IMG/VR virus record: IMGVR_UViG_3300020464_000011
Location: 1-36,740 of that record
Length of the DNA: 36,740 nucleotides
DNA from: a virus
Taxonomy: Duplodnaviria > Caudoviricetes
Reading direction: 5' to 3' (one strand)
How positions within the stretch are numbered: the first letter of the stretch is position 1; every line of letters starts with the position of its first letter. This document shows, in pieces, positions 18,539 to 36,740 of this stretch. Both the position numbers and the translations under genes were made by a program. The notes below the pieces were generated by a model. It searched no databases, was not told the DNA's origin, and saw nothing but the letters and a program-made list of their open reading frames with translations.

Positions 18539-18562
18539 TTGGATACAGATTGGATACGCTTT
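18539..18562 (+). repeat. attP left arm-type direct repeat (TTGGATAC x2)
   Basis: TTGGATAC-AGA-TTGGATAC-GCTTT about 80 bp left of the core. Confidence 0.75.
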
Positions 18563-18643
18563 TGCTAAAGTAAGCAGCGTATAAACCTTCTTTTATGTGG
18601 CGCAAAACCTAAGAAAATAGCCTTCAACACCCTTAAATATCGC

Positions 18644-18689
<46 letters not shown>

Positions 18690-18704
18690 TTTATTTTATA
18701 ATAA

Positions 18705-18717
18705 TATCAGTATATTA
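18705..18717 (+). promoter_or_regulatory. IHF consensus site in attP
   Basis: TATCAG-TATA-TTA is a full match to WATCARNNNNTTR, between the core and the right arm, with AT-rich flank. Confidence 0.6.
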
Positions 18718-18757: not shown

Positions 18758-18777
18758 TTGGATACAATTTTGGATAC
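18758..18777 (+). repeat. attP right arm-type direct repeat (TTGGATAC x2)
   Basis: TTGGATAC-AATT-TTGGATAC about 70 bp right of the core. Confidence 0.75.
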
Positions 18778-18784
18778 GTTTTTG

Positions 18785-18820
18785 TTGCATTGCTTGACAC
18801 AATATGTCATAACTGATTCG
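18785..18820 (+). promoter_or_regulatory. Promoter of the integrase operon with overlapping repressor operator
   Basis: TTGCAT-17-CATAAC; operator TGACA-CAATA-TGTCA at 18795-18809. Confidence 0.65.
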
Positions 18821-18846: not shown

Positions 18847-19077
18847 ATGATTTATAAAGCATTCCACCACGGCGCAAAGATGAGAGCCAAAAAAGACGCA
18901 GGCGGTAAGTGGATGGTCGGCGGTGACTACGACACAAACAACGCCCTCATCATGTTGCCTTCTGATAACTGGTCTGGATGGGGTTGGTATCAGTTGCGCG
19001 GCTGTGTTCTGAAGTTTCAAGACAACGCTGTAGAAGAAGAAATTGCGTTAACAGTAGACGAATGGGCGGCGGCTTAA
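18847..19077 (+). CDS. Hypothetical protein upstream of integrase
   Basis: 76 aa; strong AAGGGAG RBS. Confidence 0.7.
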   Translation: MIYKAFHHGAKMRAKKDAGGKWMVGGDYDTNNALIMLPSDNWSGWGWYQLRGCVLKFQDNAVEEEIALTVDEWAAA

Positions 19078-20415: not shown

Positions 20416-21285
20416 TCAGAACGCAATTAGCTTGTCATCCAAGCTCACAGAAATGTCAGCCTTTGTTGATGATTTGCCAGCCTTATAATTTTTGTATGCC
20501 CGGCTAAGCAAAACGCTAAAATGGTGAGCGCGCAAAATAAACTCTCTGCTGTTCTTCATTCGGTTTACATTTTCCAAAAGAAAGGGAACCGGCGCTCTTG
20601 GCTTTGATCCTATGCCTTTGCAAAAATCATCAAAAAATTCTGTGATTTGTTTGCGTTGTCCTTTTTGTACGGCAACGTAAAAGAACGCGCCAACAACGCC
20701 TGTTTGCCATTTGGTTGTGTTGTAAACACGCTTAGCCAAATGTATTGATTCTTGTAACAAATTATGGTCAATTTCTTCTAAATATTTACGTTTGACCCAA
20801 TCGTTTGACACGCCAGACTTTGGCGAATCTGTCATCTCAGCTTCGTAAGCAATGATCATTTTTATGATTGTCGATGCTTTGCTGTAATTTGGTACACCCA
20901 TCATGGCTAGCGTGTCAGACGCATCACGCTTTTTACCAATGTCGATGTGGTGAAAAGTCTCCGGGTTGATCCCCCAAATGACATGTGTGTCGAATGGTGT
21001 GTTAGCCCTAACACAAGCCTCTAGACGATGTTGCCCATCTTTTAAAAGCCCGTCATCACCAAACTTAATGGTTTCGCCAGTGACGCTCCAATTCCTTTTG
21101 ACCATGTCTTTTGAGTAATTGATTATTTTTTTACTGCTTAATGGCCTGTTTTTGTGGTTGGTTTGGTCAAGACAATATTGGGCAACTTTTGGGCCAATGG
21201 TTACTACTATACTGCCAGCAGGCGGCTTGCCTAAATATTTGTCTAACACGCTTTCACTAAGCATTTTCGGTTTCATTGATAACAT
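20416..21285 (-). CDS. ParB/Srx-fold protein with DGQHR motif
   Basis: NRPLS...GETIKF...LKDGQHRLEA; GGGAG RBS. Confidence 0.75.
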   Translation of the reverse strand: MLSMKPKMLSESVLDKYLGKPPAGSIVVTIGPKVAQYCLDQTNHKNRPLSSKKIINYSKDMVKRNWSVTGETIKFGDDGLLKDGQHRLEACVRANTPFDTHVIWGINPETFHHIDIGKKRDASDTLAMMGVPNYSKASTIIKMIIAYEAEMTDSPKSGVSNDWVKRKYLEEIDHNLLQESIHLAKRVYNTTKWQTGVVGAFFYVAVQKGQRKQITEFFDDFCKGIGSKPRAPVPFLLENVNRMKNSREFILRAHHFSVLLSRAYKNYKAGKSSTKADISVSLDDKLIAF

Positions 21286-21487
21286 CTTCTTCGCTCCCTT
21301 TCATTTTACGAATACGATCAATTTCTTCGGCGGGTATCCACCACTTGCGGCCATCCCTGACGCTGGCCAATGTGCCTTTTTTCAACAGGCGATAGGTTGC
21401 ATCCCTTGTGCCGGGTGTCCATCTGCCAAACAGCGCCACGGCTGTATTGCGAACATCCAGCAAGGCAGGGCCGGGGTTCCTATCCAT
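21257..21487 (-). CDS. xis: Excisionase-like HTH protein
   Basis: From ATG 21487 (GGAGG RBS): LLDVRNTA...TYRLLKKGTLASVRDGRKWWIPAEEI, a MerR/HTH_17 pattern. Confidence 0.75.
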   Translation of the reverse strand: MDRNPGPALLDVRNTAVALFGRWTPGTRDATYRLLKKGTLASVRDGRKWWIPAEEIDRIRKMKGSEEDVINETENA

Positions 21488-21833
21488 TGTTAAACCTCCC
21501 ACCAAAGCCACCGCCTGATGGTGCAGCCGGGGCAGCATCATTGTCTTGCGGCTCTTCGTAAGGCTTGTTGGCAAAAATATTGACAGACCCAAGAAGCTTG
21601 TCGTTCTTGTAATCATCATCAACAGACTGATTAAATTTTACATTGAATTGCAGATCATGTTTGATGACCAAATCGCGGATCGTGTTGCAAGCCGCAATCT
21701 TTTGCTCATCGAACTTGTCTGCCTTTTTAGGGTTAACCCAGCAAGCTAGCTTCAGCTTTAATGGTTCCCCGGACGCGCTACGAATACACTCCATCTGAGT
21801 GTTATTGTTTGTGAATGTTGGTCTGTTGCTCAT
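21480..21833 (-). CDS. Putative ssDNA-binding protein
   Basis: Follows Erf; 117 aa with a flexible Pro/Ala/Gly tail ending in Phe-containing residues. Confidence 0.45.
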   Translation of the reverse strand: MSNRPTFTNNNTQMECIRSASGEPLKLKLACWVNPKKADKFDEQKIAACNTIRDLVIKHDLQFNVKFNQSVDDDYKNDKLLGSVNIFANKPYEEPQDNDAAPAAPSGGGFGGRFNNG

Positions 21834-22417
21834 TTAAAGCCCTCCATTTTTTTGTCGTATTCATCACCCACAGTTTTGTAAATATCAGGCGCTGCGGTTT
21901 CAGCCTGCACAATTATTTTTTCATTGTCGTCAGTCCATTTATCAAGCTGCGCTCTGTTGCATGTTTTAATTGTGGCAAGCGCCTCGTCAGCCCAGCCTTT
22001 CCAATCAAAGTTTGCCTCACCATCGTCATCATCATCGTCATCAAGCTCAGCGATCCCGGCGGCAAGGCCAAGGATGCCTTGCAAGAGATATCGCCGCCCA
22101 TATGACATTGCAGAGCCAAGCTTCTGGCAATGCGTCATGTCATCGACAATAAGGGGCCAAGCCAGATCAGGTGATGACCAGCTCACGCCACTGCTATGCA
22201 CAATGACCGGGGATATAAAATACTCATTGTTTTCGGTGCGCCGCACAGGGAATGAAATACCAATGCCATGATCTTTTGCTGCTTTTTTGACAAGCGTCAT
22301 CATTGATCCGATTGATGCGTACTGTGATCGATTGCCAGTTTTGTCCAGATTCATAGCTTCATTAGATTCTTGGAATGCAACCAGTGCCGTTGCGATGGCC
22401 TCTGGCATTGCAGTCAT
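21830..22417 (-). CDS. erf: Erf-family ssDNA annealing protein
   Basis: YASIGSM, QKLGSAMSYGRRYLLQGILGL and DDDGE. Confidence 0.88.
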   Translation of the reverse strand: MTAMPEAIATALVAFQESNEAMNLDKTGNRSQYASIGSMMTLVKKAAKDHGIGISFPVRRTENNEYFISPVIVHSSGVSWSSPDLAWPLIVDDMTHCQKLGSAMSYGRRYLLQGILGLAAGIAELDDDDDDDGEANFDWKGWADEALATIKTCNRAQLDKWTDDNEKIIVQAETAAPDIYKTVGDEYDKKMEGFK

Positions 22418-23926: not shown

Positions 23927-23957
23927 GTTCTATCAGTTCATGACATACAGTGTCAAG
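23927..23957 (-). promoter_or_regulatory. Leftward early promoter with operator (PL/OL-like)
   Basis: Minus strand TTGACA-18-TAGAAC; operator TGACA-TACAG-TGTCA at 23941-23955. Confidence 0.7.
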
Positions 23958-24851: not shown

Positions 24852-24963
24852 AACGTAAGCCCCTTTGTCACAATGTGTCAAACTGATTTGTCTATACCTA
24901 AATATCTTGTCATCACATGTCAAGTCTGATACTACAACTATCAAAATAGTTGAGGAATTAGGC
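24852..24963. promoter_or_regulatory. Lysis-lysogeny switch (divergent promoters, two operators)
   Basis: TGTCA-CAATG-TGTCA (24866-80) and TGTCA-TCACA-TGTCA (24908-22); TTGACA on the minus strand at 24923-18 and TTGTCA on the plus strand at 24907-12. Confidence 0.75.
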
Positions 24964-28734: not shown

Positions 28735-28771
28735 CACAACTAATATGGGTATCTTGACACAATATGTCAAG
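28735..28771 (-). promoter_or_regulatory. Cassette promoter with perfect operator
   Basis: TTGACA-17-CATATT on the minus strand; palindrome CTTGACA-CAATA-TGTCAAG at 28753-28771. Confidence 0.8.
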
Positions 28772-28906: not shown

Positions 28907-29329
28907 ATGGCACCTCGTAAGATCAATAAAACATTGATGACAGACATTGCTGACCGTCTTGGCAGTGGTGAGACATTGCTCAGCATTTGCAATGATGCAG
29001 GCATGCCAAGCTATCGGACTGTCACAAGGTCAGTGCTGAAGGATGATGAGCTGTTTGAGATCTATCGCCGTGGCCGTGTCATGCAGGCTGAGTATTATGC
29101 GGATCATATCAATGATCTTGCTATGTCACCGTTACCGGCTGACCTTGATCCACGCATGCTGAATGCAGAGGTGCAGCGCCGTAGGCTTGAGGTGGATACA
29201 TTAAAGTTCACGATGGCTAAGCTACAGCCTTGGGGCTTGAGGGATAAGAAGGAAGACGCACCAGCTCAGCAAAGCATCACGATTAGCTGGCAGGGTAATG
29301 AGGTAACAGCAGAGGAAGGACAGGGGTAA
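28907..29329 (+). CDS. terS: Terminase small subunit
   Basis: IADRLGSGETLLSICNDAGMPSYRTV HTH and RRLEVDTLKFTMAKLQP; upstream of terL. Confidence 0.88.
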   Translation: MAPRKINKTLMTDIADRLGSGETLLSICNDAGMPSYRTVTRSVLKDDELFEIYRRGRVMQAEYYADHINDLAMSPLPADLDPRMLNAEVQRRRLEVDTLKFTMAKLQPWGLRDKKEDAPAQQSITISWQGNEVTAEEGQG

Positions 29330-29476
29330 GGGTCACTATATATCAGTGCTGTGTCTGACCCAGCTACGCGCGTGAGGCAGGCCGGGCTGGCCATCGATGC
29401 ACCGCCTGAGTAGAGCGGTAACCTTTGATGCTGTGTCTCGCAGAATTGCTAGGGAAAGAAGGACATGCCTGATTGT

Positions 29477-29500
29477 TTGGATACAGAATGGATACGCTTT
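29477..29500 (+). repeat. Distant copy of the attP arm-type repeat
   Basis: TTGGATACAGAATGGATACGCTTT, 23/24 identical to 18539-18562. Confidence 0.85.
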
Positions 29501-29607
29501 GCCTAGAATATTGATCAGGTTTTTGAGATATGCCTGACCCCACCCTCCAAAAATTTACCGCGCCCTCATACATCAATAATCTTCCCGACTAATGGAGCCA
29601 TACATCC

Positions 29608-30897
29608 ATGCAGATTGTCATCCCCTATGCTCCCCGGCCTCTACAAGCAAAGCTGCATGATCAGCTCTCTGAGAAGCGTTGGGGCGTAGTTGTATGCCAT
29701 CGCCGGTTTGGCAAGACAGTCATGGCGGTCAACCATTTGTTGCGCGATGCGATAATGAACGACAAGCCCAACCCACGCTATGCGTACATGGCTCCCACTT
29801 ATCGGCAGGCCAAGAATGTGGCATGGGATTATTTGAAGCAATTTGCTGGCAAGATCCCCGGTGTGCGGTTTCATGAGACTGAGCTGCGTTGTGATCTACC
29901 AACAGGGGCTAGGATCAGCCTGTTGGGCGCTGAGAACCCCGACAGCTTGCGAGGGATCTATCTGGACGGCTGTATTATGGATGAGGTCGCAGACATGCCT
30001 GAGAGCGTGTTTCCTGAGATCTTACGCCCGGCATTGTCTGATAGGGCTGGTTGGTGTGTGTTTGTAGGCACACCGCGCGGAACCAACATGTTTTACGATT
30101 ATTATGAGCTGGCGGCATCGAATGATGATTGGGTTGCTGCTGTTTATAAGGCCAGCGAGACAGGCATATTGCCAGAGGAAGAGCTGGAGGCTGCAAGGGT
30201 GATGATGTCACCTGACCAGTATGAACAGGAATTTGAGTGCAGTTGGGTGGCGAATGTACCCGGCAGCATTTACGGCAAAGAGATGCAGACCGCTTTGGAA
30301 GAGGGCCGCATTACGAATGTGCCGTATGACCCGGCGATGAAGGTACAGACATTCTGGGATCTGGGCATGGGCGATGCGACAAGCATTTGGTTTGCACAGA
30401 CAGGCGGCAGTGCCGGGAAGGGCATTCATGTCATTGATTATTATGAGGCGCGCGGTGAGGGCTTACCGCACTACTGTGCAGTCCTTGCGCGTAAAGGTTA
30501 TTTGTATGGCGATCACTTTGCGCCTCACGATGTTGAGGTTAGGGAACTTGGTTCGGGCAAAAGTCGAAGAGAGATTGCGTGGGATCTTGGGCTTAATTTC
30601 AGAGTTCTTCCAAAGCTTCCGTTAGAGGACGGCATCCACGCAGCGCAAATGTTGATCCCCCGGTGTTACTTTGACCGGGATCGATGCAAGGCTGGCCTAG
30701 AGGCGTTACGCCAATACCACCGGGCTTACAATGAGAAAAGCAGAACATTCAGACTAACGCCTGTTCACGATTGGTCATCACATGCGGCTGACAGCTTTCG
30801 CTATATGTCGATTGGTGTGCAGGAAAGCCGTGTGAACGCCCGGCCACCACAACAGGTTGCGATGACCGCATATGATCCATTTGCGGTTGCAATGTAA
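29608..30897 (+). CDS. terL: Terminase large subunit
   Basis: HRRFGKT Walker A, CIMDE Walker B, GTP coupling motif, WDLGMGD and HAADSFRY nuclease motifs. Confidence 0.96.
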   Translation: MQIVIPYAPRPLQAKLHDQLSEKRWGVVVCHRRFGKTVMAVNHLLRDAIMNDKPNPRYAYMAPTYRQAKNVAWDYLKQFAGKIPGVRFHETELRCDLPTGARISLLGAENPDSLRGIYLDGCIMDEVADMPESVFPEILRPALSDRAGWCVFVGTPRGTNMFYDYYELAASNDDWVAAVYKASETGILPEEELEAARVMMSPDQYEQEFECSWVANVPGSIYGKEMQTALEEGRITNVPYDPAMKVQTFWDLGMGDATSIWFAQTGGSAGKGIHVIDYYEARGEGLPHYCAVLARKGYLYGDHFAPHDVEVRELGSGKSRREIAWDLGLNFRVLPKLPLEDGIHAAQMLIPRCYFDRDRCKAGLEALRQYHRAYNEKSRTFRLTPVHDWSSHAADSFRYMSIGVQESRVNARPPQQVAMTAYDPFAVAM

Positions 30898-36167: not shown

Positions 36168-36740
36168 ATGCCATCAGCCGTGGACATTTCTAATGCCGCG
36201 CTCAACACGCTTGGCGCGACAAACATCACAAGCCTGACTGAAGATTCAAAGGCTGGGCGTTTGATCAACCAGCGTTACGAGCTGGTGCGTGATGCTGTGT
36301 TTCGCAGTCATAATTGGAACAGTTTAATAAAACGCGCTGATTTGGCTCAGAACGCCGTTGCACCGGCTTTTGGCTATCTGCATCAATATACCTTGCCAAC
36401 CGACTGTCTGCGTGTCCTAGAGTTCAGCAATGGCACTCTGATGTATCCCCAAGACAATATGACCAGCAACAATGGTGGCCCGGTCTATGTCATTGAGGGC
36501 AGGGAGCTGCTGAGCGATGAGGGAACTGTCCTGATCAAATATATAGCGCGCATTGAAGATCCAAACCAGTATGACACGCTGTTGATCGATACGATTGCGG
36601 CCCGGCTGGCGATGGAGATCTGCTATGCCATTACCGGCAGCAATGCGATGATCAGTACAACCAAAGCGCTCTATGATGAAAAGATAAAGGAAGCCCGGTT
36701 TGTTGATGCCACCGAAGGTGCGGCGGCTAAGTTTGAAGCC
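36168..36740 (+). CDS. Tail tubular protein A / head-tail adaptor, 5' part (continues to 351)
   Basis: MPSAVDISNAALNTLGATNITSLTED..YELVRDAVFRSHNWN..YTLPTDCLRV; GAGG RBS; open to the window end. Confidence 0.88.
   Translation, partial: MPSAVDISNAALNTLGATNITSLTEDSKAGRLINQRYELVRDAVFRSHNWNSLIKRADLAQNAVAPAFGYLHQYTLPTDCLRVLEFSNGTLMYPQDNMTSNNGGPVYVIEGRELLSDEGTVLIKYIARIEDPNQYDTLLIDTIAARLAMEICYAITGSNAMISTTKALYDEKIKEARFVDATEGAAAKFEA
36417..36740. repeat. Terminal direct repeat, copy 2
   Basis: Matches 1-324. Confidence 0.97.

Follow-up and report, generated by a model that had tools for sequence, protein, structure and literature searches.

The gap between the terminase genes terS and terL of a marine, temperate podophage contains a direct repeat that is, judging from its distribution among relatives, an arm-type site of a lambda-family integrase. 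We consider it evenly balanced whether this repeat provides the arms of a second site for integrase (Int) that recombines with a copy of itself, joining the repeated ends of injected DNA into a circle. The gap site appears to be attL-like: it combines an arm pair with a predicted core that follows the phage's own attP, at a fixed and phased spacing and with a private overlap, and it alternates with a dif-like site among relatives. On these comparative grounds we regard the feature as real, under selection and a new version of known recombination systems.

The window, which is the whole stretch of 36,740 nt analysed here (IMGVR_UViG_3300020464_000011), is a circular assembly of a podophage genome of ~36.4 kb. 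Its ends (1-324 and 36417-36740) overlap within a tail gene at 315/324 identity, which probably reflects an assembly circle joining two strain variants and not a physical terminal repeat. Among isolates, the HTVC010P-type pelagiphages encode the TerL nearest to that of the window, a similarity that does not reveal the packaging type. The phage resembles the HTVC010P-type subgroup II temperate pelagiphages (PMC8477408) in its gene order, TerL (52-57% identity) and tRNA-targeting integrase, but it has a higher G+C content. Integration has been shown by PCR for HTVC028P (Du et al. 2021, PMC8477408); passages of that paper describe the attP core and mention neither arms nor a second site. The features of the window are collected in Table 1.

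Table 1. Features of the window discussed in the text (positions of the whole stretch)
Feature	Position	Strand	Remarks
attP left arm pair	18539..18557	+	
attP core, 3' part of tRNA-Asp	18639..18689	+	identity with host tRNAs from ~18644
IHF consensus site	18705..18717	+	between attP core and right arms
attP right arm pair	18758..18777	+	
tyrosine integrase, 386 aa	19104..20264	+	N-terminal ~45 aa tracks arm type
excisionase-like gene	21257..21547	-	weak match to TIGR01764 (E 5e-5), below family cut-off
Erf-like ssDNA-annealing protein	21830..22417	-	alternative route to circularisation
terS	28907..29329	+	Sf6-like small terminase; PF20901, E 4e-20; Sf6-type gene 1 structures, E 2e-9
CGCG-type motif	29364..29376	+	just 3' of terS; common to cassette-type and dif-type relatives
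predicted core-type Int site	29401..29419	.	half-sites 29401-29406 and 29414-29419, 6 bp, 5/6 symmetric
CGCAG-N5-YTR-like motif	29438..29452	+	between core and arms; in 14/18 clade gaps
predicted Int arm-type pair TTGGATAC / ATGGATAC, period 11	29477..29495	+	left-arm match runs on to 29500
IHF-like 13-mer	29513..29525	+	8/9 consensus positions; distal to arms, poorly conserved
GACCCC-ACCCYCC motif, then A-tract	29536..29548	+	in both cassette-type and dif-type relatives
terL	29608..30897	+	52-57% identical to HTVC010P-type pelagiphage TerL

The terS-terL gap measures 278 bp. Two motifs, one CGCG-type and one C-rich, flank the site in all gap types; each may be a signal for packaging or for the genome terminus. 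A search of the gap revealed nothing resembling a promoter. A repressor-like HTH protein is also encoded in the window, and the palindrome TGACA-N5-TGTCA occurs at 18795-18809, 28755-28769 and 23941-23955, with variants at 24866 and 24908. The copies at 18795 and 28755 are identical, and the palindrome overlaps TTGACA boxes before int and before a leftward operon; these palindromes are likely repressor operators.

TTGGATAC is found exactly at positions 18539, 18550, 18758, 18770 and 29477 of the window, and ATGGATAC at 29488. That the att repeat recurs in the terS-terL gap had been noticed from the window by itself, and the recurrence holds: positions 29477-29500 match the left att arm (18539-18562) at 23/24 positions across a distance of 10,938 bp, while the next-best match of this 24-mer on both strands of the whole window reaches 16/24. 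The arm pair is confined to the two att arms and the gap, where 113-131 bp separate it from the downstream terL start and one conserved gap motif lies on either side. Although the accompanying IHF-like 13-mer is present as claimed, its position is distal to the arms and it is not conserved in 17 close relatives, of which 12 score 6/9 and five score 7/9. This 13-mer and the site at 18705-18717 were scored with what we take to be the IHF consensus.

At the att site, direct-repeat pairs flank the attP core on both sides. Contigs with host tRNAs join this core at ~18644 and 18689-18692 (loose ends 18642-18644 and 18679-18697), and because identity with the host tRNAs begins at ~18644, the crossover is predicted to fall in the anticodon loop, at 18645-18651. 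A scan of contigs in MAG bins returned two phage-sized contigs and no integrated prophage. The annotated ORFs of the window include a single integrase, whose N-terminus tracks the arms and whose attP lies in a tRNA sequence. Sorted by arms, close integrases form four types, as they do by N-terminus; by tRNA target they form two groups (Asp and Glu cores). Across ten integrases with known arms, the N-terminal ~45 residues sort with the arm type and the remainder of the protein with the tRNA target, which is why we read the gap and att repeats as arm-type sites of Int. The same split between an arm-recognising N-terminus and the remainder is described for lambda Int (PMC4880445).

Some further variation was observed around int. 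In the integrases of L001-L012, the N-terminus, which binds the arms, and the body, which binds the core, have been shuffled independently of each other; the exchange point lies near residue 50, and arms and core are swapped to match. A small ORF between attP and int (18847-19077 in the window) is kept, lost or replaced among relatives. Extra core-type half-sites are present just before the -35 box of int in the att regions of G016, G018, G033, G054, G059, G066, G070, G111 and G115; G070 has a full inverted repeat there, and G054 and G066 have several half-site copies. Autoregulation by Int is a possible explanation of these half-sites.

The link between gap and att was assessed in 20 related genomes or contigs that hold both the terS-terL gap and the att region. 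A repeat unit was picked blindly from each gap and then sought in the att region of the same phage. In 18 of the 20, the unit recurred exactly at least two times in the phage's own att region, in agreement with the expectation, formulated from the window, that the gap motif co-varies with each phage's own att arms. In a thinned set, 13/14 own pairs matched versus 4/182 cross pairs, a result reached in 0/100,000 permutations. G016 carries gap arms one base off its att arms, in both copies, and G019, which has a truncated att region, yielded no exact pair. More than 12 different arm words were found across the co-varying genomes, the cultured HTVC028P included. The comparison phages P22, Sf6 and BPP-1 have matching arm pairs at att only, save for one weak pair with two mismatches in gene 10 of P22; the blind finder returned no unit in lambda, which was thus used for geometry only. 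An earlier scoring by longest local match between gap and att was dropped in favour of the blind test, as differing inter-arm spacers made it too blunt. Four records with the C-rich motif and an integrase (G048, G077, G078 and G091) and G095 were excluded because their flanks show unrelated phages. An arm-like pair and the same C-rich motif were also seen in the gaps of L154, L161 and L210, whose TerL identity is only 31-48%, so the cassette may reach beyond this TerL family.

The absence of a tRNA core near the gap arms had been noted from the window and stands, but a symmetric core-type site on the terS side of the arms had been missed. Its predicted 7-bp overlap (29407-29413) is unlike that of attP, and in the window the arms begin 70 and 81 bp downstream of the first base of this overlap. 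Gaps of 17 genomes were scanned with the half-sites of each phage's own att and compared with 100 shuffles each. The scan did not include G070 and G105, in which no tRNA core was identified, or G019, whose contig stops within the core. A core-type site was significant (≤5/100 shuffles) in 13 of the 17, and the score was not significant in the window (95/100), G010 (68/100), L128 (19/100) and HTVC028P (33/100). In the clade of the window (18 gaps), symmetry has its main peak at 70-71 bp before the arms, even as the letters of the half-sites change (mean 3.8/6 at -71, with lesser peaks at -44 and -35). This peak is the reason for placing the window core at 29401-29419, a prediction drawn only from position and kept symmetry.

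In the genomes of the core scan, arms start either 47-49 and 58-61 bp or 69-71 and 80-82 bp from the overlap start, and they lie on one side of the core only; the cassette as a whole is found in either orientation. The gap overlap never equals the att overlap (0-4/7 identical forward, 2-5/7 reversed), so with 0-5/7 identity in either direction the gap site is not a true prophage attL or attP. Cassette overlaps vary even between phages that are nearly identical. G115, which has a different tRNA target, has correspondingly different core half-sites, while the remaining gap is common to G086, G090 and G108. Words like the CGCAG-N5-YTR motif also occur in the left att arm of relatives, and this motif is a candidate site for a DNA-bending protein. 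Between core and arms, the best match to the presumed IHF consensus scores 5-8/9 across 18 cassettes and 6/9 in the window. The gap of cultured HTVC028P has an arm pair 48 and 58 bp from its candidate core, with an 8/9 IHF match in between. A small HNH-like ORF seems, by eye, to lie just upstream of the cassette in L066/G033 and L049.

This order of parts (core, candidate bend site, two arms on one side) is that of lambda attL, in which a core inverted repeat with a 7-bp overlap is followed by the bend site H' (IHF) and the P' arms and is bridged by heterobivalent Int (PMC4880445). In lambda attL, IHF lies at +35 and an arm at +66, a spacing that differs from the gap cassette by about one helical turn. 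The gap cassette further differs from lambda attL in lying 11 kb inside the phage instead of at a prophage junction, in having an overlap unlike attP and attB, and in being kept by selection.

These properties bear on the function that the original prediction gave to the repeat, namely that Int, sitting in the gap, prevents terL from being transcribed or packaging from starting in situ before excision, or else brings pac and att together in a loop. The position of the arms, upstream of terL and between conserved motifs, is as such a model would have it, and arm sites are the high-affinity sites of Int (PMC4880445). Yet a roadblock needs no core site at a fixed phasing and would not be swapped for dif, and the gap has no promoter-like site that we could find. 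Moreover, the int promoter shares its operator-like palindrome with an early promoter; Int levels are therefore probably low in the lysogen and high once it is induced, the reverse of what a guard would require. We consider the blocking and looping functions quite improbable as the main role: a phased core, a cassette found in either orientation and its replacement by a dif-like site at the same place point to recombination rather than repression. The gap site may still have a secondary regulatory effect.

If the gap site is recombined, attP is one conceivable partner. The site could invert or delete the 10.8-kb early region together with attP, or be a dead duplicate; we consider this the least probable of the readings, and very improbable. 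Identical Int determinants at att and gap are what it would predict, and the gap overlap of L145 matches the reversed att overlap at 5/7 positions. Full matches of the overlaps never occur, however; int and terL are co-oriented in 20/20 genomes, and neither a strand-changing nor an att-to-gap joint was seen in contigs of four runs. The gap arms are also renewed with every change of the Int N-terminus, unlike a dead copy.

Relatives without an integrase have a different site in the same gap. Among 49 distinct gaps selected by TerL, a strict rule assigned 23 to the arm pair only, 22 to dif only, three to dif with a repeat elsewhere and one to neither; in shuffled gaps, a pair was found in 42/2,120. 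The dif-like sites, present in 25/49 of these gaps and often beside an IHF match, have an 11-6-11 layout with XerC-like and XerD-like 11-bp arms around 6 bp, and were called with a pattern that we take to be the dif consensus. An integrase was found in 18/45 cassette records and 0/33 dif records, which are similar in mean length and mostly fragments; among records of at least 28 kb the counts are 9/9 and 0/4. The arm motif is thus absent from relatives without an integrase, as had been anticipated from the window. On a quick TerL tree this anticorrelation corresponds to ~3 changes, two of them forced, and the records are not independent. Across 56 gaps, 29 different dif centres were counted.

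The dif pattern has no match within the window, nor upstream of terL in the four pelagiphage isolate records HTVC010P, Lederberg, Skadi-4 and HTVC106P. Pelagiphage isolates do have a GATAA-N6-8-TTATC-like symmetric word upstream of terL (approximately L418:1150-1200, L419:1090-1130, L421:1100-1140 and L287:480-520), possibly a SAR11-type Xer site missed by the dif pattern. Three complete records without a TerL match and without an integrase (G116, G120 and G163) show a dif-like site beside the same C-rich motif. A count of 0/50 dif-motif records with an integrase was set aside, as many of these lie outside the TerL family (three of the five long ones checked had no match).

A dif-like site at the place of the Int cassette relates these phages to XerCD/dif and the mobile elements that exploit Xer. 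It would fit a second integration site, with the gap as an alternative attP for Int, the dif-type relatives using XerCD at the host dif, and prophages split between terS and terL. Gokushoviruses reportedly integrate at dif through XerCD. The same is known for CTXphi (PMC8026635), and the dif-type phages indeed have no integrase of their own. A fixed host partner should, however, forbid the free variation of overlaps and dif centres seen in close relatives. The window itself has no dif, and the central hexamer of its relatives is highly variable, unlike a site that pairs with one host dif. The arms flank the cassette on one side only, and none of the family records is classed as a provirus, though few prophages of any type were sampled. 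We judge a second integration site improbable, if somewhat less so than a brake on packaging. Drifting overlaps and varied dif centres are instead as expected if the partner of each site is a copy of itself.

Two direct copies of one site are also at hand in multimers. Self-recombination at the gap site could have no other purpose than to reduce dimers or multimers, whether of replicating circles or of sister prophage copies, to single units, irrespective of where the genome ends lie. All evidence for a self-recombining site fits this explanation equally; resolving dimers is what dif is known to do, and what the Xer-like recombinases of plasmid prophages are assumed to do (PMC8026635). A resolution site could be anywhere, however, and the constant placing of both the Int cassette and dif between terS and terL would be unexplained. 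We regard resolution as the sole role as unlikely, although it is the strongest of the alternatives. The joining of ends after injection is favoured because of this fixed place between the terminase genes, flanked by the two universal gap motifs.

In the favoured circularisation by Int, early Int would be made from the operator-covered promoter at 18794 and would link arm to core with the help of a DNA-bending protein of the host. The gap would sit in the terminal repeat or redundancy, so that each virion DNA would hold two direct copies of it; direct copies of the site would arise in terminal repeats and in dimers alike, and dimers would be reduced to monomers at this site as well. The unlike overlap would stop the gap site from reacting with attP, attB, attL or attR. 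Since recombination needs identical overlaps (PMC4880445), a site with a private overlap should be unable to complete recombination with attP or attB and able to do so with its own copy.

Several points speak against circularisation. A cut downstream of the cassette would leave the cassette outside the redundancy, and the phage-encoded Erf could circularise redundant ends without Int. The non-significant core scores of the window, G010, L128 and HTVC028P, the inexact arms of G016 and G019, the few tree changes behind the dif anticorrelation and the lack of a dif match in the four pelagiphage isolates weigh on the same side. Contig ends are not clustered at one base: among 160 pattern loci, 15 begin no more than 240 bp upstream of the C-rich motif, at distances from 22 to 236 bp. 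This could mark a terminus, or else a variable segment at which assemblies broke. Contigs of four runs showed no pile-up of ends and no joint in the gap, and we found no publications on the termini of this phage group.

A functional parallel is Cre/loxP of phage P1, which cyclises terminally redundant DNA and resolves dimers. P1 is listed as a headful phage with Cre (PMC8026635, Table 1). In both systems a phage tyrosine recombinase would act on two copies of one site, but Cre, encoded by a plasmid prophage, is a monovalent enzyme in its own right and uses no arm sites. In the present phage, the second task would fall to the enzyme that also integrates the genome, which would rely on arm sites and an overlap of its own, and the gap site can be exchanged for host dif. 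Our search of mainly open-access main texts returned no account of an integrase site with arms and core in the gap between the terminase genes, nor of its exchange for dif.

Taken for the family as a whole, the proposal is that a very abundant group of marine podophages closes its linear genome at the packaging end, either with its own Int on an attL-like site or with host XerCD on a dif copy; we place this wider claim slightly short of evenly balanced. Nanopore-resolved marine phage genomes have fixed terminal repeats in 93.7% of cases, with a mean of ~450 bp (PMC7111524). Circularisation after injection is rarely known for tailed phages with short terminal repeats, and a swappable gap site would supply a mechanism for it. 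In lambda, attL recombines with attL through the 'bent-L' pathway, a side reaction to which the gap site would give a natural role. The many natural pairs of arms and N-terminal domains in this family also offer material for reading out the recognition code of integrases. If the proposal is true, one integrase runs two separate reactions, with the unlike overlap insulating the attL-like gap site from integration and excision; lytic growth, and not just lysogeny, would then depend on Int, and the integrase gene would be more than a marker of lysogeny.
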